From a virus (lineage: Duplodnaviria > Heunggongvirae > Uroviricota > Caudoviricetes): a stretch of DNA of 40,799 bases. A program made the translations under genes and the position numbers. Below, piece by piece: positions 1,084 to 36,669 of the stretch. The stretch lies in the IMG/VR virus record IMGVR_UViG_2698536687_000008, positions 1 through 40,799 of that record. One strand, given 5' to 3'. Below the pieces are notes generated by a model that did not search any database, had not been told where the DNA came from, and worked only from the letters and a program-made list of their open reading frames with translations. Position 1 is the stretch's first letter. Every line of letters begins with the position of its first letter.

Positions 1084-1244
1084 TTTATCAGTTCGCTCCC
1101 ATCCGTACCAGTCCGCAAAATCCCCTGAATATCAAGCCTTCCGTAGATTAGCAGTTCGTCATGGTTCGCGTCAGATCGTTGACAGCCGCACTCCATGACG
1201 GGTAAAAAGTGGATAAAATAATTTTACCCACCGGATTTTTACCC

Positions 1245-2402
1245 ATGCTCACCGTTAAGCAGATTGAAGCAGCAAAGCCGAAAGAAAAACCATATCGCCT
1301 TCTCGATGGTAATGGCCTGTACCTTTATGTCCCTGTATCCGGGAAAAAGGTATGGCAGCTTCGCTACAAGATTGACGGTAAGGAAAAAATACTGACCGTA
1401 GGAAAATATCCGCTAATGACTTTGCAGGAGGCAAGAGATAAAGCATGGACCGCGAGGAAAGACATCTCGGTTGGCATCGATCCGGTAAAAGCGAAAAAGG
1501 CTTCGTCTAACAACAATTCCTTTAGTGCGATTTACAAGGAATGGTACGAGCACAAGAAGCAAGTCTGGTCAGTAGGCTATGCAAACGAACTTGCCAAAAT
1601 GTTTGACGACGACATTTTACCCATCATCGGCGGCCTTGAAATTCAGGATATTGAGCCGATGCAACTGCTGGAAGTAATCCGCAGATTTGAAGATCGCGGT
1701 GCAATGGAGCGAGCCAACAAAGCCCGCAGAAGATGCGGAGAGGTTTTCCGTTACGCTATTGTCACCGGAAGGGCTAAATATAACCCGGCACCTGACCTTG
1801 CAGACGCCATGAAAGGATACCGCAAGAAGAACTTCCCGTTTCTTCCTGCAGACCAGATCCCGGCATTCAACAAAGCACTGGCAACATTTTCAGGAAGTAT
1901 CGTATCGCTTATTGCGACTAAAGTTTTACGCTACACCGCCCTAAGAACGAAAGAACTTCGTTCCATGCTATGGAAGAACGTCGATTTTGAAAACAGGATT
2001 ATCACCATCGACGCCAGTGTGATGAAGGGTCGAAAAATTCATGTGGTCCCGATGTCAGACCAGGTGGTTGAACTTCTTACTACGCTAAGCTCAATCACCA
2101 AACCAGTATCAGAGTTTGTTTTTGCCGGACGCAACGATAAGAAGAAGCCAATCTGCGAGAACGCGGTGCTACTTGTGATCAAACAAATCGGCTATGAAGG
2201 TCTGGAAAGCGGTCACGGATTCAGGCATGAATTCAGCACGATTATGAACGAGCACGAATGGCCTGCTGACGCTATTGAAGTGCAACTAGCACATGCCAAC
2301 GGCGGATCTGTGCGCGGTATTTACAACCATGCTCAGTATCTAGATAAGCGCAGAGAAATGATGCAATGGTGGTCGGACTGGATTGATGAAAAGGTGGAGT
2401 GA
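1245..2402 (+). CDS. intS: Tyrosine recombinase, P4-type prophage integrase
   Basis: ORF track frame opens at GTG 1209; first ATG at 1245 gives MLTVKQIEAAKPKEK..., 385 aa, recognised as KplE1/CPS-53 IntS; tRNA-adjacent position. Confidence 0.9.
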   Translation: MLTVKQIEAAKPKEKPYRLLDGNGLYLYVPVSGKKVWQLRYKIDGKEKILTVGKYPLMTLQEARDKAWTARKDISVGIDPVKAKKASSNNNSFSAIYKEWYEHKKQVWSVGYANELAKMFDDDILPIIGGLEIQDIEPMQLLEVIRRFEDRGAMERANKARRRCGEVFRYAIVTGRAKYNPAPDLADAMKGYRKKNFPFLPADQIPAFNKALATFSGSIVSLIATKVLRYTALRTKELRSMLWKNVDFENRIITIDASVMKGRKIHVVPMSDQVVELLTTLSSITKPVSEFVFAGRNDKKKPICENAVLLVIKQIGYEGLESGHGFRHEFSTIMNEHEWPADAIEVQLAHANGGSVRGIYNHAQYLDKRREMMQWWSDWIDEKVE

Positions 2403-2554
2403 TCCACCTTAACCACTATCGAAGAGCACAAAGCCTTGCAATCCAGCGCAAAGCTTTGTTTGTCTCAGTTTTGTCTTATCAACCACAGCAAGTATCGATC
2501 GTTTAAGATTTGGATGATAGACTTCATGCCTTTGATTATTAGCTGATAGAATAA

Positions 2555-2917
2555 ATGTTAAAGCTATTTGCAAAGTACACCTCGATTGGTGTGCTGAACA
2601 CACTTATACACTGGGTGGTTTTTGGTGTATGTATCTATGCCGCGCATACCAATCAGGCTCTGGCAAACTTCGCAGGTTTCGTTGTGGCTGTGAGTTTTAG
2701 CTTCTTCGCGAATGCAAGATTCACATTCAAAGCATCGACTACAACGATGCGCTACATGTTATATGTCGGGTTCATGGGAACACTGAGTGCTACTGTTGGA
2801 TGGGCTGCTGATAGATGTTCACTTCCTCCAATTGTCACTCTTGTCACCTTCTCCGCCATCAGCCTGGTGTGCGGTTTCGTCTATTCAAAGTTCATTGTCT
2901 TTAGGGATGCGAAATGA
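2555..2917 (+). CDS. gtrA: Bactoprenol-linked glucose translocase (flippase) GtrA
   Basis: 120-aa four-TM protein of the GtrA family; first gene of a gtrABS operon. Confidence 0.88.
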
Positions 2918-3840
2918 AGATATCTCTTGTAGTTCCTGTCTTCAATGAAGAAGAAGCGATACCAATTTTTTATAAAACGGTACGAGAGTTCGAAGAGTTG
3001 AAGCCATATGAAGTGGAAATTGTTTTCATAAATGACGGAAGCAAAGACTCTACGGAGTCAATTATTAATGCTCTGGCTGTTTCAGATCCCCTAGTTGTTC
3101 CGCTGTCATTTACGCGCAACTTTGGTAAAGAACCAGCATTGTTTGCAGGATTAGACCATGCAACTGGGGATGCTATAATCCCAATTGATGTTGACCTGCA
3201 AGACCCGATTGAGGTTATTCCTCATCTTATTGAAAAGTGGCAGGCAGGTGCTGATATGGTGCTTGCTAAACGATCTGACCGCTCAACGGATGGTAGACTG
3301 AAGAGGAAAACCGCCGAGTGGTTCTATAAGCTGCATAACAAAATCAGCAACCCGCAGATCGAGGAAAATGTTGGAGATTTCAGGCTAATGTCTCGCGAGG
3401 TGGTAGAAAACATTAAGCTCATGCCTGAGCGCAACCTTTTCATGAAGGGTGTTTTGAGTTGGGTTGGTGGTCGCACTGATATCGTTGATTATGCCCGCGC
3501 AGAACGTGTTGCTGGCAGTACCAAGTTCAACGGATGGAAGTTGTGGAATCTTGCTCTTGAGGGAATTACGAGCTTCTCGACTTTTCCGCTACGTATGTGG
3601 ACTTACATCGGCCTTCTCGTCGCTGGCTTAGCATTTACATATGGCGCATGGATGATTCTGGACACTCTGGCGTTTGGAAACCCGGTTAGAGGTTATCCAT
3701 CCCTGCTGGTATCGATACTTTTCTTGGGCGGGATTCAGTTGATCGGTATAGGGGTACTTGGTGAATACATCGGAAGGATTTATATCGAGGTTAAACAGCG
3801 TCCAAGATATATTTTAAAGGGTAAGAATAAAAATGATTAA
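2914..3840 (+). CDS. gtrB: Bactoprenol glucosyltransferase GtrB (GT2 family)
   Basis: 308 aa with N-terminal GT2 domain (VVPVFNEEE...DGSKD...DVDLQDP) and C-terminal TM helices; start overlaps gtrA stop. Confidence 0.9.
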
Positions 3841-5287
3841 CAACTCAAAACGTTACTCGTATGTTATTTTTATATTTATATTGCCAATTATCCTAGCAAA
3901 TCAATTTTATGTTGATGATATTGGGCGAACGACTGTTGGTTATACTAAATGGGGTGTGGACGGGAGGCCTGTAGCTGATATAGTAATGTCAGTTCTCAAT
4001 CTTAGCTCCAGAATCGTCGATCTTGCACCTCTACCAATCATTCTTGCTTCTGTGCTGCTTGCAATATCTTTTGCATGTTACAGAAAGAGGTTTCTTGATG
4101 GGGGAAAATGGAGCTTTATTATACCTCTGGCATTCATGGCGAATCCAGCTATTATATCAATGTTCTCTTATCGGTTTGATGTTTTAACTTTCAGTTTCTC
4201 CATTGCATCTGCATTTGCTCTCTTTGCAATTAAGTGCAAAAGACTGGCTCATGAATTAATAATAGGCACCGCATTTGTAGTGATAGTGCTTGGCACTTAT
4301 CAGGCAGTCATTAATGTCGTTGCGATTTTATTAATATGTGAAGTAATAGTTAACATGGCCAGATTTACTGACCCGCAGTTAATACTTAAAAGGGTTGCAT
4401 TACGTATAATGCAGGTTTTAGTAGGTGGTGTGATATACGTGAAATTCATATTACCCATAACTTTTAGCGGGCATTATTCATCTAATCACCCAAGAATATC
4501 AAATGATATATTTGGTGCACTAAAGAATAACAGCTTAAAGTATTACGATTTTGCTTCTACAAATTTTTACAGGGTTATCGGTGGTGAATTATTACTCCTG
4601 TCAGCTTTAGCTTGCATTATTATGACGGCGTTTCTGAGTTACAAATACGTTAAATGTAAAGGCCTAAACTGGAAAGTATTTAACGTTATAACTGGAGCGA
4701 TACTCGCAACAGCAATCGCTATGCCAATGACTATGGGGGCATTGCTGGTTCTCGCCAACCCATTGGGAGGAGTTCACTTATACATGTCGGTTGGAGTTTT
4801 TTATGTCCTCATGAGTACATTGCTATATTATTGCTTTAAAGAACATAGATACGTAACATCAATTACATTAATACCCGTATTGTATTCTATGATTTTAATG
4901 TATGCATACGGAAATGCTTTGAAGGCTCAGGAAAGGATAAATAAAGTAGTTCTTTCTGAAATTATGCAATCCATTCGCGACGCTGGTAGTGATAATGTTA
5001 GCATTGTGTTTACCGGCACAGCACCAAGATCCGAAGCTGTAAAAAATGCAGCATTAAACTTTCCTTTGATAAACTATTCAGTCACAGATTACTTCTGGAA
5101 CTGGTATTGGGGAAGTGCGTACATGTCATTTAATGGGATAAAGAATACATACATGCCAGCAAACAAGGCTAAAAATTACATTTCTCATAAATGTGAAGGT
5201 AACCTATCCTTTCAGGGGCAATGGCTAAATTCCTATATCAAGGATAGCGTTTTGATTGTTGATTTTGATAAAAAATCCTGCCAATAA
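3833..5287 (+). CDS. Serotype-specific O-antigen glucosyltransferase (GtrS/GtrC-type polytopic membrane protein)
   Basis: 484-aa multi-TM protein directly after gtrB; strongly AT-rich coding sequence typical of horizontally acquired gtr type-specific genes. Confidence 0.75.
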
Positions 5288-5322: not shown

Positions 5323-7482
5323 TCAATAGGTATAAATAGGTTGATCTTCTACAGGCACGCACTTCATTCTGAAGAATGAATAATAACCTGAATTACCTGT
5401 GAAAGTAAGAGTTAATGTGCTACCAGTGAATGTTGCTGTGGGTGCTGGTATTAATGTGGTCCCAGCCTTCGAGCGTCCCTGGTAGCCAGTAACAGTTGTT
5501 GTTGTTCCTACCAACACTGTAAATCTTAAATCCTGCTGTACAGTGGATGCGGTGTTTCTCATCAAAAGCCTAACGCTATACTCACCTCCATCTGCAATAT
5601 TTCCAATCTGGATACTAAAGCTCACTGTACCATTTGCAGTTACAGTAGGAGTTCGCATTGTATACTGGTCTAGCAATCCAACAAATTGAACTGTAAAAAG
5701 CCTCTGCGCTGAAAGTGTAGTCGATAAGCTATCTGTGATAGGGTGTTGGTTTTTTATGACAATATTGTAGGAGCCATATCCTAAATCTTTAGTAAGATTC
5801 TGGAATTTTGTTACCACTCTTGGATTTTCAATTATCACTCGTGATCTTTCAGATGGGAGGTATTCTCCTGAAGTAGTGTCAAAAACATTCCCTGACTGCA
5901 CCGCCAGATCTTTAATGTCGTGATTAAAGTATGTCCCTGTTGAATAAAACTCTGAGGCAACACCATGCACAAAAACACGATGCCCTGTCTCGCTTGCAGG
6001 TACTCCAATCCATTCTGTATACCCACCAAACATATTAACATTGCCGCAATAAAAAAGAGCAAACTCTCTGTTGTACCCTTCTATTGTTACGCCATACAGG
6101 TCTATATCGAAGCTATTGTAAGCATACATAAATGTAGTTACATATGCGATATTCGGTCTATTAGAATCACTTATGCTTCGATGGAACCATTGCTGAGTAC
6201 CATCAGCAAAAAGGAAAGAAGTGTTACCTGTAAAATAACCAGCATCTATGCGTATAGCGGTGCATTGATACACAAGAAATGTTGCGTATTTAGCACCAAA
6301 AGCAAAGCAATCGCGGATAGAGATATCCCATGAACCATTCAACCAGTACCCAACCTTGCAATTATACACCGCGACTTTATTAAGTCTGGAGGCTGGCACG
6401 CGCCAAATTCGAACACCGCATTGTGTATCTGCAAGACCGATAAATACTATGTTTTCCAGGGTAGCCCCGTAATACCCATCACTTTCAGTACGACCGTATA
6501 ACATTTCGTCTGTTGTCGTATACCGCTTAGAGTTATCCTTTAGCCATGGAGCTGTGTCAAACATTATCTTTGAGGTTTCCATAGTTGGCATAGCCACAAT
6601 GCAGGCGCATCCAGCCCGGGAAAAACGAAATCCTGGACTGCCGCCGGTTCCCAAAATTCGCACATTAGGTGCACCATAGATGGTGTCATTGATGTAGAGT
6701 AGCCCCGCTGGAATTACCACATCACCCCCCTGATGGCTATCCATATCCTTATCTAAGTATGGGTTTAAGTAGGATATCGCGGCGTTAAGCATAGGTGCGC
6801 TATCAAAAGTGTTGTCGTTAATTTTAGCACCAAACTCCAGAGGGGATACTGTGCGATTAAGATACGCGGCTACAAACTCTCTCTTCCAGCGTCCGGTTCC
6901 GACATTGCCTGTTGGGTTAATGGTATAGCCTCCGTCATCAGTATCAGTGCTGGTTGAATTCCAGCGGAAATATCCTCCGCCATAACCAGCTCCAAGGTGA
7001 TAAGAATCAACATAGACTCTTCCATTTTCCTTAACTGATGAGTATGCAGTAAATGCTCGTAGATCTGCTATTGATGAGAATGTACCAAATAATGCATAAG
7101 AATCAGGCGCAGACATCTTGGCAAGCCATTCTGCAGAAAACTGATCCGGGTCATACTTCAGCACATTAGGAAAATAGAACTGCTGCACACCGTATGCATC
7201 ATAAACAGCCATCGAATGGCCTTGCACAGTTACGAACTTGGCAATCTGTCCGTTATATACCGGGTAACCAGCCGCATTAATGATGATTGGTTGCGAAACA
7301 GGAACGTGAGAACCGTCTTCGTTCTCCACATAAACCTGAATCTGGTTTTCAGGATTTACCGGGTCAGTGTCAATTTTACCGATATAAATTTTGCCATTGG
7401 CTACGGCTTTAAAAGAATGAGCCATGGTGAAGAGTTGCGAAGGCATGCTGACCACAACATTGGCATTTATTGAATCTGTCAT
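5323..7482 (-). CDS. Tailspike protein (P22 gp9-like head-binding domain plus divergent beta-helix receptor-binding/O-antigen-cleaving domain)
   Basis: Start ATG at 7482 gives [18 protein letters not shown]...; first ~110 aa match the P22/Sf6/HK620 tailspike N-terminus from memory; rest is divergent. Confidence 0.9.
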
Positions 7483-7569
7483 TTTAATTTCTCTATATGT
7501 TAAGCAAGCAATATTCATTGCTAGCATGTTTTTTGTATAATGAGTGCACTTTATTTAAAGGTGGTTAAC

Positions 7570-8078
7570 ATGAACTGGAACGAAGTATTCGTATTAAAAG
7601 ACGATGGACTCCTGTACTGGAGTGACCAATATCTTTCAAGACCCAAAATGTTCAATATCTCTAAAGAAAAGCCTGCAGGACATATATTCAAGGACAAGAA
7701 CAGGAAAACCTCTTATATAATTATTAGGTATCAAGATAAAATATACGCCGCCCATAGGATAATATGGGAAATGTTTTATGGTGAAATCCCTTCCGGAATG
7801 CAAATTGACCATAAAGATGGTAACGGGTTAAATAATTCAATAGACAACCTGCGTCTAGTTAGTCTCGGTGAAAACCTAAAAACAAATCTAAATACACAAA
7901 CAATACATCTGGGTGTGCTGGGGTTTCATGGCATAAGACCCATAAAAAGTGGGTGGCATATATTAGCGACGCAGGGAAGCGCATTAATCTCGGATACTTT
8001 AAGAGTCTCGATGATGCAATTGCTGTAAGGCGTGAGGCTGAAAAGACCTATGGTTATCATGAGAATCATGGTAGGTGA
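7570..8078 (+). pseudogene. HNH-AP2 homing endonuclease, reading frame broken in an A-rich tract
   Basis: Frame A (7570-~7880) carries the HNH motif IDHKDGNGLNNSIDNLRLV; the AP2 domain GVSWHKTHKKWVAYISDAGKRINLGYFKSLDDAIAVRREAEKTYGYHENHGR continues in the -1 frame to a stop at 8076-8078. Confidence 0.6.
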
Positions 8079-32859: not shown

Positions 32860-33096
32860 TGTCAGCATTCTGGCTACTTTCTTAGCCAGTTCCGCCAACT
32901 CCTCGTCTTCAACACCCCATTCAAGAACAGCCAGAAGCATTCCCATTTTTGGGATGAAGCTATCTTTCCATCGAGAAATTTGCGATTCATTAATCCCTAA
33001 CGCGTCGGCAACCTTTCGCTGACCACGTACAGCAATTCGATTCAGGATGTTGCTTGTAATTGCATTCGCTTTCTTGCGAGTACTTGTAAGTTCCAT
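32818..33096 (-). CDS. cII: Transcriptional activator CII (P22 C1-like)
   Basis: From ATG 33096: MELTSTRKKANAITSNILNRIAVRGQRKVADALGINESQISRWK...MLLAVLEWGV; strong similarity to lambda CII / P22 C1. Confidence 0.85.
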   Translation of the reverse strand: MELTSTRKKANAITSNILNRIAVRGQRKVADALGINESQISRWKDSFIPKMGMLLAVLEWGVEDEELAELAKKVARMLTKEKAPKNGEFFEA

Positions 33097-33127
33097 ATGT
33101 AAGTATTTCCTTAACAAATAAGAAGTT

Positions 33128-33147
33128 ATGCGCATCAACTTATGCGC
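33128..33147 (-). terminator. tR1-like hairpin between cro and cII
   Basis: Minus strand GCGCAT-AAGTTG-ATGCGC hairpin followed by a U-rich stretch, in the position of lambda tR1. Confidence 0.4.
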
Positions 33148-33155
33148 GTTGTATT

Positions 33156-33198
33156 CCCGCATTTCGGCGGGAATGAGGACCATGACTGTTAAAGAGCG
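33156..33198 (-). promoter_or_regulatory. nutR (boxA CGCTCTTTAACA plus boxB CCCGCCGAAATGCGGG)
   Basis: Minus strand boxA matches the rrn/lambda boxA consensus, followed by a boxB hairpin; identical elements recur as nutL. Confidence 0.65.
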
Positions 33199-33204
33199 GT
33201 GTTA

Positions 33205-33399
33205 CTATTTGTTTTTCTTGTTGCTTGGGAAAGGACGAACTTCCTCTCCAATCACACTGCCATCAGGCTTTACCGTAACCATGATGTTACGGCCTGCCAG
33301 AATGGCCTTGCTGATAGCGCACTGGATTACACCAAAGTCACTGGCTGCTTTAGCCTGTCCATGGATTTTGGCGTAATCGGCAAGTGTCATTCGAATCAT
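33205..33399 (-). CDS. cro: Cro repressor
   Basis: From ATG 33399: [62 protein letters not shown]; lambda Cro-like; the track start at 33405 is GTG. Confidence 0.8.
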
Positions 33400-33430
33400 A
33401 TGCACTCTCCGTTATTAACCATGAACAAAG

Positions 33431-33470
33431 AATACTACAGGTATTCAAAGCAATCAATACTCAGGGTATT
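33431..33470. promoter_or_regulatory. OR operator region with divergent pR/pRM: two 15-bp palindromes AATACnnnnnGTATT
   Basis: AATACTACAGGTATT (33431-33445) and AATACTCAGGGTATT (33456-33470), 25 bp centre to centre, between cro and cI. Confidence 0.55.
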
Positions 33471-33505
33471 TTTAGTTTAAGTACCTTAGCTATTAGAATT
33501 AAGCT

Positions 33506-34222
33506 ATGGAAAATAAAAAATCACTGACGACAGAACAGCTGGAAGACGCTAAGCGGCTTAAGGCTTTGTATGAGTCAAAAAAGAAAGAATTGGGGATAAC
33601 CCAATACTCAATCGCTGATGAACTGGGTATCACCCAAGGAGCGGTAGGCCATTATCTTAATGGCAGAAATGCGCTAAACGTTGAGGTTGCATCTGGTTTT
33701 GCACGATTGTTGCAAGTCTCAATTGCTGATTTTAGCCAGTCAATTGCTGCCAAGGTTGCAGAACAGGCAGAAAGCCTTAAGAGCGATGCCAACGTAAGGT
33801 ATGCAGGGGAATACAGAGCAGGAAAGAGGTATCCGGTGTTAAGCAGTATCCAGGCTGGCTCGTGGTGTGAAGCATGCGAACCATACACCATTAAAGACAT
33901 AGATGTTTGGCTTGAGTCTGACGCGCATATTCAAGGTAATGCGTTTTGGCTTAAAGTGGAAGGTGATTCAATGACGGCACCGGTTGGGTTAAGCATTCCA
34001 GAGGGAACATTCGTTCTTTTCGATACCGGAAGGGAGGCGATCAACGGCAGCTTGGTCATAGCAAAACTTTCTGACTCTAACGAAGCAACATTCAAGAAGC
34101 TGATAATCGACGGCGGAAATAAATACCTCAAGGGACTTAACCCTGCATGGCCTCTCGTGCCAATCAATGGAAACTGCAAGATTATAGGCGTTGCAATTGA
34201 GACAAAACTAAGGCTGGTTTGA
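33506..34222 (+). CDS. cI: CI repressor (HTH plus S24 LexA-like autopeptidase domain)
   Basis: 238 aa; N-terminal HTH (QYSIADELGITQGAVGHYLNG) and C-terminal GDSM serine motif; divergent from cro. Confidence 0.9.
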   Translation: MENKKSLTTEQLEDAKRLKALYESKKKELGITQYSIADELGITQGAVGHYLNGRNALNVEVASGFARLLQVSIADFSQSIAAKVAEQAESLKSDANVRYAGEYRAGKRYPVLSSIQAGSWCEACEPYTIKDIDVWLESDAHIQGNAFWLKVEGDSMTAPVGLSIPEGTFVLFDTGREAINGSLVIAKLSDSNEATFKKLIIDGGNKYLKGLNPAWPLVPINGNCKIIGVAIETKLRLV

Positions 34223-34239
34223 TCACGCAAGGGGCGCTT

Positions 34240-34608
34240 ATGGTTGGAACCGCTATAGCAAGCTTTTTTGGGATGTTGGCAATCTCGACAATTTACGGCT
34301 TAGCGCATGCTTTTATTGCGAAATCTCTATCAGAAAAAATAAGCCAGGCTTGGGCGCATAGATCAGCTCGTTTCATGATTCTGGTGATCATAGCAATACA
34401 AGGGATATCTGCATTTATCCTCTATGGATCAAGCTTATACCTATTGTATCAAGGCGCGACATTTACGCCTTACACCAGTGATTACGGAACTCTATACGAT
34501 GGTAGTGAAGACATCTCTATGGCTTGGATTGTCTTTGGTTTATCTATGGCCGTGTCTGTTGTAGCAGACATCATTAAGGTAATTCTCGTCTTAACCTTCG
34601 CTGACTAA
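34240..34608 (+). CDS. Small polytopic membrane protein downstream of cI (rex-position moron; candidate exclusion function)
   Basis: ATG 34240 with RBS AAGGGG; about three predicted TM helices; no resemblance to RexB noted. Confidence 0.6.
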   Translation: MVGTAIASFFGMLAISTIYGLAHAFIAKSLSEKISQAWAHRSARFMILVIIAIQGISAFILYGSSLYLLYQGATFTPYTSDYGTLYDGSEDISMAWIVFGLSMAVSVVADIIKVILVLTFAD

Positions 34609-34739
34609 CCCATAATCCCGGCAGCAATAGCTATCGGGATCCACTTCACATATCCCGCATAAAAAGCACTGAACAAGCAGACACCGAAAAAATAAATATC
34701 CTTTGTATTCATTTGCTTATCATTATTTCACCAAAAATA

Positions 34740-34781
34740 AATACCTTGGGTATTTACACAATAAAATACCTACAGTATTCT
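34740..34781 (+). promoter_or_regulatory. OL operators and pL promoter
   Basis: AATACCTTGGGTATT (34740-34754) and AATACCTACAGTATT (34765-34779), same half-sites as OR; -35 TTTACA 34753-34758 and -10 TATTCT 34776-34781, 17-bp spacer. Confidence 0.5.
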
Positions 34782-34826
34782 TTAGCCATCAGCAGGACGC
34801 TGGAAGCCAAACGGAACAGATTGGCA

Positions 34827-34867
34827 GGCTCTTTAACATTGATGGGATTGTCCCGCCGAAATGCGGG
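34827..34867 (+). promoter_or_regulatory. nutL (boxA GGCTCTTTAACA plus boxB CCCGCCGAAATGCGGG)
   Basis: Same boxA/boxB pair as nutR, downstream of pL and upstream of N. Confidence 0.65.
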
Positions 34868-35039
34868 AACCAAAGAGTAGTTGGCTTTGGGGTGTGGTGA
34901 AGGGTTCATGGACGGGAATATGTCGCACGTAAAGCGGCGAGGCCTGCGGGACCATTGCCGAATTGAAGTCGGACGAAGCGGGTCGAAATGGGTCTCCCAC
35001 CTACCACACCACCAAAGCTAATCATCTGAGGAACAGAAA

Positions 35040-35159
35040 ATGTTAGACATCATGACCAACCCAATTCTCGGTGGTTTAGTTACCACATTCGCCATCTGCT
35101 TCGGTTTCACTATCTGGTCTGAAGTAGATGACTGGATGTGGGAACGCAAAAACAAATAA
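35040..35159 (+). CDS. Hypothetical 39-aa single-TM peptide between nutL and N
   Basis: RBS GAGGAACAGAAA then ATG; MLDIMTNPILGGLVTTFAICFGFTIWSEVDDWMWERKNK. Confidence 0.35.
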   Translation: MLDIMTNPILGGLVTTFAICFGFTIWSEVDDWMWERKNK

Positions 35160-35199
35160 TCATCGACACACAAGGATGTGTACCTTCCCGGAGGTCAAC

Positions 35200-35499
35200 A
35201 TGACAGTAGTCATTACATATCTGGCTGACGATAACGCCAGAAATCGCCGCAGAGCACGCAGACAGGCTCAACGTGAGCAGGCAATGCAAGAGCAGCGACT
35301 GGCGCGAAAAATTGCGCTAAAGCTCTCTGGTTGCGTCAGAGCAGACAAAGCAGCATCACTAGGAAGCCTTCGCTGCAAGAAGGCAGAAGAAGTCGAGCGT
35401 AAACAGAACCGTATTTACTACAGCAAGCCACGCAGTGAAATGGGTGTGACTTGTGTTGGTCGCCAGAAAATGAAATTAGGCAGCAAACCACTTATTTGA
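35200..35499 (+). CDS. N: Antitermination protein N
   Basis: ATG 35200 after GGAGG; arginine-rich motif NARNRRRARRQAQREQ; C-terminus ERKQNRIYYSKP...CVGRQKMKLGSKPLI parallels lambda N. Confidence 0.8.
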   Translation: MTVVITYLADDNARNRRRARRQAQREQAMQEQRLARKIALKLSGCVRADKAASLGSLRCKKAEEVERKQNRIYYSKPRSEMGVTCVGRQKMKLGSKPLI

Positions 35500-35577
35500 G
35501 GTGATATATGGAAGAAGAATTTGAAGAGTTCGAAGAGCATCCTCAGGATGTGATGGAACAATACCAGGACTATCCGT

Positions 35578-35778
35578 ATGACTACGACTATTGATACAAA
35601 TCAATGGTGTGGACAATTCAAGCGATGCAATGGATGCAAGCTGCAATCGGAATGCATGGTTAAGCCTGAAGAAATGTTTCCTGTAATGGAAGATGGGAAA
35701 TATGTCGATAAATGGGCAATACGAACGACGGCAATGATTGCCAGAGAACTTGGTAAACAGAACAACAAGGCTGCCTAA
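35578..35778 (+). CDS. ral: Restriction alleviation protein Ral
   Basis: 66 aa, MTTTIDTNQWCGQFKRCNGCKLQSEC..., near-identical to lambda Ral from memory. Confidence 0.8.
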   Translation: MTTTIDTNQWCGQFKRCNGCKLQSECMVKPEEMFPVMEDGKYVDKWAIRTTAMIARELGKQNNKAA

Positions 35779-36004
35779 TGGTGGCCTTTATTTTTGGCAT
35801 AAACAACAGAATAAACACTGCACTGTGTATTCATTCCAACGAGTGAATACACGGAGCAATGTCGCTCGTAACTAAACAGGAGCCGACTTGTTCTGATTAT
35901 TGGAAATCTTCTTTGCCCTCCAGTGTGAGGGCCTTTTTATATGCATACCAATAACGCTTCACTCGAGGCGTTTTCGTTATGCAATCAAATATAAGGAGTT
36001 ACCC

Positions 36005-36139
36005 ATGATGCACTTTCAGCTCGCGGGTAGCGGCGTCATGTCCGCTTTCTACCCGCACGAATCTGAATTATCACGCCGAGTTAAACAATTAATCAGAGCA
36101 GCAAAGAAACAACTGGAGGCGTTATGCGCAATGAAATAG
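36005..36139 (+). CDS. cIII: CIII-like FtsH inhibitor
   Basis: 44 aa from ATG 36005 (RBS AAGGAG); HFQLAGSGVMSAFYPHESELSRRVKQLIR parallels the lambda CIII central helix. Confidence 0.55.
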   Translation: MMHFQLAGSGVMSAFYPHESELSRRVKQLIRAAKKQLEALCAMK

Positions 36140-36276
36140 CCATTAATCACCAGATGCTTCGTGCTGCACAGAACAAAGCAGTAATAGCCCGATTTATTGG
36201 TGATTCCAAAATGTGGCTTGAAGCAAATAAAGCGATGAAATCAGCTATCAACCTTCCGTGGTATCGCAGGAAATGA
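36124..36276 (+). CDS. Kil-like small protein
   Basis: 50 aa, RBS GGAGG; VIARFIGDSKMWLEANKAM resembles the lambda Kil core; start overlaps the cIII-like 3' end. Confidence 0.4.
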   Translation: MRNEIAINHQMLRAAQNKAVIARFIGDSKMWLEANKAMKSAINLPWYRRK

Positions 36277-36357
36277 GTTTTACAGATAACTGGTCAGACG
36301 AAGAATTCATTCGTCAGATGAACAAAATGCTCAATCAGCACAAAGAACAGGAGAAAG

Positions 36358-36669
36358 ATGATGATTCTGACTCTGAATGATAAGCGTGAAATATCGCAAA
36401 TAATCGCAAGTTTTACTGATGAAGATTACGAACGAATCAACAGTGAAGTTGATCGCCTCTGCAAACGTTGCGACCCAATAAGCGAAATGCTTCGCTCATA
36501 TAAACCAGATGAACACACTAAGGACGCTATCGACTGGCTGGAAGATGATGACTGTAACTATCAGGAAAAAGCCGCTGAATGGTTCTGGGATGCAATAACC
36601 GAAAGAGTTAAGGCTGAATATGCCTTCGCAATATTCAAACGCAGACACATTTATGGAGAAGCAGCATGA
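36358..36669 (+). CDS. Hypothetical acidic protein at the gam position (candidate nuclease inhibitor)
   Basis: 103 aa, highly acidic, immediately upstream of recT; no family recognised. Confidence 0.55.
   Translation: MMILTLNDKREISQIIASFTDEDYERINSEVDRLCKRCDPISEMLRSYKPDEHTKDAIDWLEDDDCNYQEKAAEWFWDAITERVKAEYAFAIFKRRHIYGEAA

Follow-up and report, generated by a model that had tools for sequence, protein, structure and literature searches.

What might a small membrane protein do for a lysogen when its gene lies directly behind the phage repressor gene cI and ahead of the leftward operators and promoter, the position held in phage lambda by rexAB? The question is raised by a 40,799 nucleotide stretch of viral DNA (IMG/VR record IMGVR_UViG_2698536687_000008, the window throughout), in which a reading made from the sequence alone had singled out one ORF after cI as a plausible candidate for a lysogen-expressed defence or exclusion factor. 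The window is a P22-like E. coli prophage with P22-type head and ejection genes and an HK620-type immunity module in its early region (Table 1). Its cI is 99.6-100% identical to the cI of HK620, mEpX2 and HK140, and 52% identical overall to that of phage 434, the latter similarity lying mostly in the C-terminal domain. A promoter scan at pL gives TTTACA-17-TATTCT at 34753-34781, the N start codon at 35200 is preceded by GGAGG, and no credible Rfam matches to structured RNA are present in 33000-36500.

Table 1. Features of the window, with the immunity region around hkaS in detail (positions in nucleotides from the first letter of the window).
Feature	Position	Strand	Basis and remarks
Integrase	1209-2402		
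gtrB/gtrC-like O-antigen conversion genes	2914-5287		
Tailspike gene	5323-7527		
cro	33205-33405	-	Divergent from cI, right side of the immunity switch; ORF and HK620 annotation transfer; Pfam Cro gene here in homologous loci
Operators OR1-OR2-OR3 with pR and pRM	33430-33495	.	HK620 coordinates transferred (offset 31899) and sequence reading
cI repressor, HK620 immunity type, 238 aa	33506-34222	+	HTH_3 and Peptidase_S24 domains
Shine-Dalgarno AAGGGG	34229-34234	+	5 nt upstream of the hkaS ATG, within the 17-nt cI-hkaS spacer; sequence
hkaS, 122 aa, three TM helices, predicted inner-membrane	34240-34608	+	ORF, PHROG, topology, model
RNA hairpin	34615-34640	+	7 nt past the hkaS stop; folding energy
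Operators OL3-OL2-OL1 and pL	34717-34788	+	HK620 annotation transferred
nutL (boxA GCTCTTTAACA and boxB hairpin)	34827-34868	+	HK620 nutL annotation transferred, read in the sequence
N antiterminator	35200-35499	+	PHROG 271, E 6.8e-38; first long pL-operon gene; bounds the slot downstream

The ORF is a real gene with its own start. It runs from an ATG at 34240 to a TAA ending at 34608 and lies directly downstream of cI, so the coordinates given in the sequence-only reading are exact. That reading had also described an overlap of the cI stop with the start of the next gene, and this part needs correction: the two genes are separated by a 17-nt spacer with a Shine-Dalgarno sequence, and an overlap exists only for an alternative TTG at 34219. 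The 129-aa version from this TTG is not conserved, the Salmonella lineage having an in-frame TAA directly before the ATG, and was rejected. The Shine-Dalgarno sequence and ATG are by contrast kept in every lineage, with AAGGA or AAAGGA in the same place in the divergent ones. The product matches PHROG 6534 end to end (residues 1-122 of 122, E 2.9e-79), and homologues down to 52% identity have a length of exactly 122 aa with 45 invariant positions. The gene is under purifying selection, with an omega (dN/dS) of 0.13-0.20 in comparisons with unsaturated dS, and the ORF is intact in all 80 of 80 closely related IMG/VR prophage loci, without a frameshift or premature stop. Codon changes in these loci amount to 20 synonymous and 18 nonsynonymous in hkaS, against 35 and 5 in cI, and hkaS dN is 4-5 times that of cI. 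The gene is constrained, yet its protein evolves 4-5 times faster than the repressor.

By sequence and position the gene can be identified as hkaS of coliphage HK620 (GenBank AF335538, AAK28867; Clark et al. 2001), which is PHROG 6534; annotated since the HK620 genome was deposited, it is not a new feature. The window and HK620 proteins are 97.5% identical, differing at three residues with both 122 aa long, and both genes have the same position between cI and tIMM/OL3. That the protein is uncharacterised, as first described, is borne out by its annotations: 'unknown' in AF335538, unknown function for PHROG 6534, 'hypothetical protein' in HK630, HK140, mEpX2, HF4s, HZ41, two Stx2c-converting phages and others, and 'hypothetical' or 'uncharacterized' for every NCBI and UniRef name read for the family. 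No study of hkaS function turned up in the literature library searched.

HkaS is a strict orphan. Comparison with Pfam, NCBIfam and PADLOC gives nothing above noise, the sub-threshold Pfam lines being TM noise (Cation_ATPase_C at 19 bits, cut-off 27, and TssN), and a PHROG scan returns phrog_6534 alone. A word-indexed search of 5.8 billion proteins retrieves 12 clusters, all of them the HkaS family (E. coli, Salmonella, Enterobacter, Hafnia), and among 1.84 billion cluster representatives an exhaustive profile search yields 2 hits. Neither a scan of one genome per GTDB species nor a profile search of PDB sequences finds a relative, and Foldseek comparison of the HkaS model with PDB and BFVD gives nothing below E 0.1. 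Clear homology to a housekeeping membrane protein, which would speak against a defence role, does not emerge from these searches, nor does an informative fold match.

The strongest evidence on hkaS is its context. When phage records are restricted to those with a cI at least 99% identical to that of the window, hkaS is present in all 16 of 16, and it occurs in no other phage record. In the IMG/VR loci cI is directly upstream in 79 of 80, the exception being a contig that begins at hkaS, and the two genes are found as one unit in 146 of 5,426 complete E. coli genomes (2.7%), O111 strains included. Divergent copies are found in Salmonella, Enterobacter and Hafnia; those of 83%, 61% and 52% identity all lie 18-21 nt after cI genes that are 86-96% identical, and the about equal dS of the two genes (0.72 vs 0.76) indicates that they have been inherited together. 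Co-occurrence downstream of cI, proposed at the outset as a check, is thus found in the phage records, in the IMG/VR loci and in all divergent homologues. The module is carried by P22-like (HK620), lambda-like (HK630), HK97-like (HK140) and Stx2c phages, and around the cI-hkaS pair there is variation in N type, in replication genes and in virion type.

The interval between cI and pL had been described as a recurrent site for exclusion functions, and the slot does prove to hold variable cargo, whether rexAB, Hex, other proteins or none. Among cI relatives of 52-71% identity the occupants are unrelated to HkaS or absent: the slot is filled by a 200-aa soluble protein in Erwinia phage 49, by a soluble protein of about 100 aa common to Escherichia phage Fostie and Cronobacter phage ENT39118, and by Hex in phage 434, and it is empty in Serratia phage OS31. 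Lambda, with rexAB, is outside this measured set. Other cargo, or none, after related cI genes indicates that the slot is a cargo site and hkaS a cargo fixed in one immunity lineage; within the HK620-type immunity module the gene is accessory. The uncharacterised cargo lies at 2530-3132 of the Erwinia phage 49 locus (L014) and, for the protein that ENT39118 and Fostie have in common, at 2621-2983 (L015) and 2664-2957 (L016), and PADLOC finds no match for the Erwinia phage 49 and Fostie proteins.

The gene layout supports co-transcription of hkaS with cI from pRM, and so expression in the lysogen. The rex position assigned to the gene holds in this sense too, as hkaS sits between cI and OL/pL with no space for a promoter of its own and a hairpin after it; neither a terminator nor a promoter fits in the 17-nt spacer by sequence and promoter scan. 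The hairpin has a folding energy of -13.7 kcal/mol (z -3.3), and at this position the Salmonella (z -4.6), metagenome (z -2.8) and Hafnia (z -4.1) lineages have hairpins that differ in sequence. Such retention of structure despite sequence change is suggestive of a functional 3' end of the cI-hkaS RNA upstream of OL3, where the HK620 annotators placed tIMM, after hkaS. As the hairpin has no U-tract it may stabilise the RNA instead of terminating transcription, and in our view the cI-hkaS transcript probably either ends there or is stabilised by it. The cI ATG has a putative TAGAAT -10 element 6 nt ahead of it, at 33494-33499, and no Shine-Dalgarno sequence; read this way, the cI mRNA from pRM is probably leaderless, as in lambda. 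With its good Shine-Dalgarno sequence hkaS could be translated from the same RNA at a level exceeding cI. The sRNA svsR, reported from the cI 3' end in prophage NC-SV (PMC12803456), was considered and set aside, no link to the window cI type being established.

A convergent hydrophobic ORF of 35 aa at 34605-34712 on the minus strand (MNTKDIYFFGVCLFSAFYAGYVKWIPIAIAAGIMG), whose span takes in the hkaS stop codon and the hairpin, was considered as a partner or toxin and rejected. It is present in HK620 and HK140, but its frame is not kept in the Salmonella and metagenome lineages, and the residues that are shared follow from conservation of the hairpin; it is probably not a gene.

HkaS is predicted to be a small integral inner-membrane protein. 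Hydropathy gives three membrane segments (about 3-27, 44-70 and 93-121), in keeping with the earlier estimate of about three TM helices, and the AlphaFold2 model, built from a six-sequence alignment (mean pLDDT 89.5, pTM 0.76), likewise has three long helices (2-29, 41-73 and 89-121), with a short amphipathic helix at 31-38 and a β-hairpin at about 78-86. The loop at 28-44 is basic (K28, K33, H40, R41, R44) and that at 71-92 acidic and aromatic (D81, D87, E90, D91), which by the positive-inside rule indicates an N-out/C-in topology, with a periplasmic N-terminus and a cytoplasmic C-terminus. Conservation is unevenly distributed over this predicted fold. It is highest in the cytoplasmic amphipathic helix 28-44 (mean pairwise identity 0.71) and in the cytoplasmic half of TM3, residues 109-122 (0.80), which hold the invariant motif D110-x-x-K113-x-ILVLTFAD at the C-terminus, and lowest in the periplasmic hairpin 79-92 (0.41). 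The invariant D110/K113 pair is intramembrane, and Q54 is also conserved. Neither sequence nor model contains a soluble domain or an enzyme motif, and there is no partner gene at the locus.

These properties invite comparison with lambda RexB, likewise a small polytopic inner-membrane protein encoded after cI and before OL/pL. RexB has 144 aa and four TM helices, whereas HkaS has 122 aa and three that are predicted, and no RexA-like partner gene or second conserved ORF is found between cI and OL. Identity with RexB was rejected, as Pfam at E<=1 and PADLOC at E<=10 give no match and the hhalign probability against lambda RexB is 0.7%; as a positive control, lambda RexB matches the PADLOC RexB model at 8.6e-61. 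SieB was likewise rejected, as no Pfam or PHROG family of that name is matched at E<=1, and the failure to match either protein by eye in the sequence-only reading is upheld by Pfam, PHROG and PADLOC alike. Position also separates the genes, sieB being in the pL operon next to N and ral and hkaS upstream of pL, while HK140 and HK620 have a separate sieB-like gene beyond N. The hex gene of phage 434 is closer in arrangement, a single accessory gene directly after a related cI (52%) and reported to be co-transcribed from pRM (PMC3564112). Despite the similar cI C-terminal domains, HkaS is not Hex: BLASTP gives E 3.9 over 8 residues, and Hex as re-annotated has 134 aa with an N-terminal segment like a signal peptide and no TM bundle.

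The re-annotated Hex (OL657226; L012 3127-3531) is itself worth a remark. It begins MIRIAALLSILLTTSANSEC, resembling an export signal peptide, and an exported Hex is hard to square with the published cytoplasmic block of RecA-stimulated repressor cleavage, which was based on a different, 158-aa reading; GenBank adds the note 'wrong start codon inferred'.

Class I holins (lambda S, P22 gp13) have three TM helices in an N-out/C-in arrangement and a size similar to HkaS. Though alike in predicted topology, HkaS ends at the TM3 boundary (...ILVLTFAD) and so lacks a charged cytoplasmic C-terminal tail, its gene is in the immunity region and not in a lysis cassette, and no holin family is matched in Pfam or PHROG; a holin identity was rejected on these grounds. 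Proteins that block DNA entry offer another comparison. T4 Imm and HK97 gp15 are partner-free inner-membrane blockers of phage DNA entry, and the mode we propose for HkaS would be like that of P22 SieA, a small prophage-made membrane protein that needs no partner and blocks DNA delivery at the inner membrane (PMC10883804). HkaS has no homology to SieA, Imm or gp15 (the PHROG scan gives its own family, PADLOC none), and while P22 sieA is in the late region near immI, hkaS follows the repressor gene.

A role in defence or exclusion would be a reasonable inference from the position of the gene and the membrane location of its product. Several genes on pRM transcripts, rexAB, the 933W tyrosine kinase gene and 434 hex, exclude other phages (PMC3564112), and together with the SieA precedent this suggests that HkaS would most likely protect the lysogen at the inner membrane. 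We propose that cI and hkaS would be transcribed together, both from pRE as lysogeny is set up and from pRM in the established lysogen, on an RNA that would most likely end at, or be stabilised by, the hairpin before OL/pL, and that hkaS would be translated from its own Shine-Dalgarno sequence. HkaS would then insert in the inner membrane as a three-helix bundle with its N-terminus in the periplasm and C-terminus in the cytoplasm, exposing the fast-evolving acidic and aromatic β-hairpin to the periplasm, with the conserved amphipathic helix and invariant C-terminal motif facing the cytoplasm. Protection against other phages would act at the membrane step as a constitutive superinfection exclusion, blocking delivery of the genome across the inner membrane, and the variable periplasmic hairpin would set the range of targets. 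A single small membrane protein with neither sensor domain nor partner gene is better fitted by such a constitutive block than by a triggered system, and we tentatively favour a constitutive DNA-entry block, its specificity set by the hairpin, over abortive infection. On the same tentative footing HkaS may found a new family of stand-alone three-TM anti-phage proteins without sequence or fold relatives, spread with the HK620 immunity module, in which the periplasmic hairpin would determine which phages are excluded and D110/K113...ILVLTFAD would provide the block. Several observations sit less comfortably with the proposal. Pfam, NCBIfam, PHROG and PADLOC show no relationship to Sie, Abi or other defence families; the variability of the periplasmic loop could reflect weak constraint alone; the conserved parts on the cytoplasmic face would suggest a cytoplasmic trigger or partner, as in abortive infection or regulation, at least as well; and hkaS is tied to immunity type, not virion type, a poor fit to a SieA-like block of phages with the same virion.

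Abortive infection is in our estimate unlikely. In membrane-damaging abortive infection RexB acts with RexA, and SieB as a single protein. By analogy an inert HkaS would be triggered by a superinfecting phage, depolarise or permeabilise the inner membrane and kill the cell before the phage cycle is complete. Occupation of the same slot as rexAB is in keeping with this, as is a polytopic protein whose invariant intramembrane D110/K113 pair and conserved Q54 are typical of conduction or gating sites, and HkaS is most conserved on its cytoplasmic side, where it would meet a phage trigger. There is however no sensor partner, nor a second gene between cI and OL that could encode one, HkaS is homologous to neither RexB nor SieB, and an unregulated pore-former made constitutively would harm the cell. 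A small polytopic protein of the inner membrane, encoded where the lysogen would express it, might also serve a lysogenic conversion unrelated to phage. It could modulate a transporter or sensor of the host, or it could protect against a bacteriocin, a stress or a toxin that acts on membranes, much like the three-TM proteins that give immunity to pore-forming colicins. The presence of hkaS in 2.7% of complete E. coli genomes, O111 strains among them, and in Stx2c phages would suit such a role, and DicB of a cryptic prophage is reported to act on inner-membrane transporters (PMC6832061). This reading seems to us distinctly unlikely, given that Pfam and NCBIfam yield no homology to colicin or microcin immunity families or host regulators, that no toxin gene adjoins hkaS, and that the family is not found outside the phage module among 1.84 billion representatives or in one genome per GTDB species.

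An effect on lysogeny itself, with HkaS tuning prophage stability or the lytic switch in the manner of Hex or Rex, is more doubtful still. The strict co-inheritance of hkaS with one cI lineage, and its absence elsewhere, would fit, as would the resemblance of the window cI to that of 434 in the C-terminal domain. Hex has the same slot (PMC3564112) and is reported to protect the 434 repressor from RecA-stimulated cleavage; RexA and RexB are in turn reported, in a bioRxiv preprint (10.1101/2021.04.19.439022), to assist the lysogeny-to-lytic transition. Yet HkaS has no similarity to Hex, a DNA-bound repressor is unlikely to be partnered by an integral membrane protein that exposes only about 17 loop residues to the cytoplasm, and a physical distance of 17 nt explains the strict linkage equally well. 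It is similarly improbable that hkaS is a passenger with little or no function, retained since it is hard to lose between cI and its operators. The very narrow family could be read in this way, as could the dN of 4-5 times that of cI and the relaxed constraint within E. coli (18 nonsynonymous to 20 synonymous changes). Such a gene would not be expected to show an omega of 0.13-0.20, 45 invariant positions across lineages sharing just 52% identity, or an exact 122-aa length with no disruption in 80 loci, and related cI genes without any gene in the slot indicate that loss is possible.

If the favoured reading of HkaS as a protein that excludes phages is right, a defence missed by PADLOC-type tools would be present in about 2.7% of complete E. 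coli genomes, and its carriers would include O111 strains, Stx2c-converting phages and lysogens of the widely used model phage HK620, with a bearing on host-range prediction and phage therapy. As a defence gene hkaS would add a new sequence family to a type of system already known, and one more case of the cI-pL slot collecting lysogen-expressed exclusion functions; if HkaS has no action on phages, hkaS is an ordinary accessory gene.

Other features of the window deserve mention. Between nutL and N lies an ORF of 39 aa at 35040-35159 on the plus strand with one TM segment (MLDIMTNPILGGLVTTFAICFGFTIWSEVDDWMWERKNK) and GAGG upstream, which matches PHROG 7482 (unknown function) at E 8e-25. The surrounding stretch of about 220 nt is absent from HK620, and a similar small ORF is annotated in HK140. 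The ORF would be an early gene of the pL operon and not a lysogenic one, and it was ruled out as an obligate partner of hkaS because HK620 has hkaS without it. The 34870-35035 interval, between nutL and this ORF, is relatively G+C-rich and non-coding, gives no Rfam match at E<=1 and is in part missing in HK620. At the other end of the window an HNH endonuclease ORF at 7540-8028 on the plus strand (PHROG 99, E 8e-28) adjoins the tailspike gene, where P22 has its immI/ant region.
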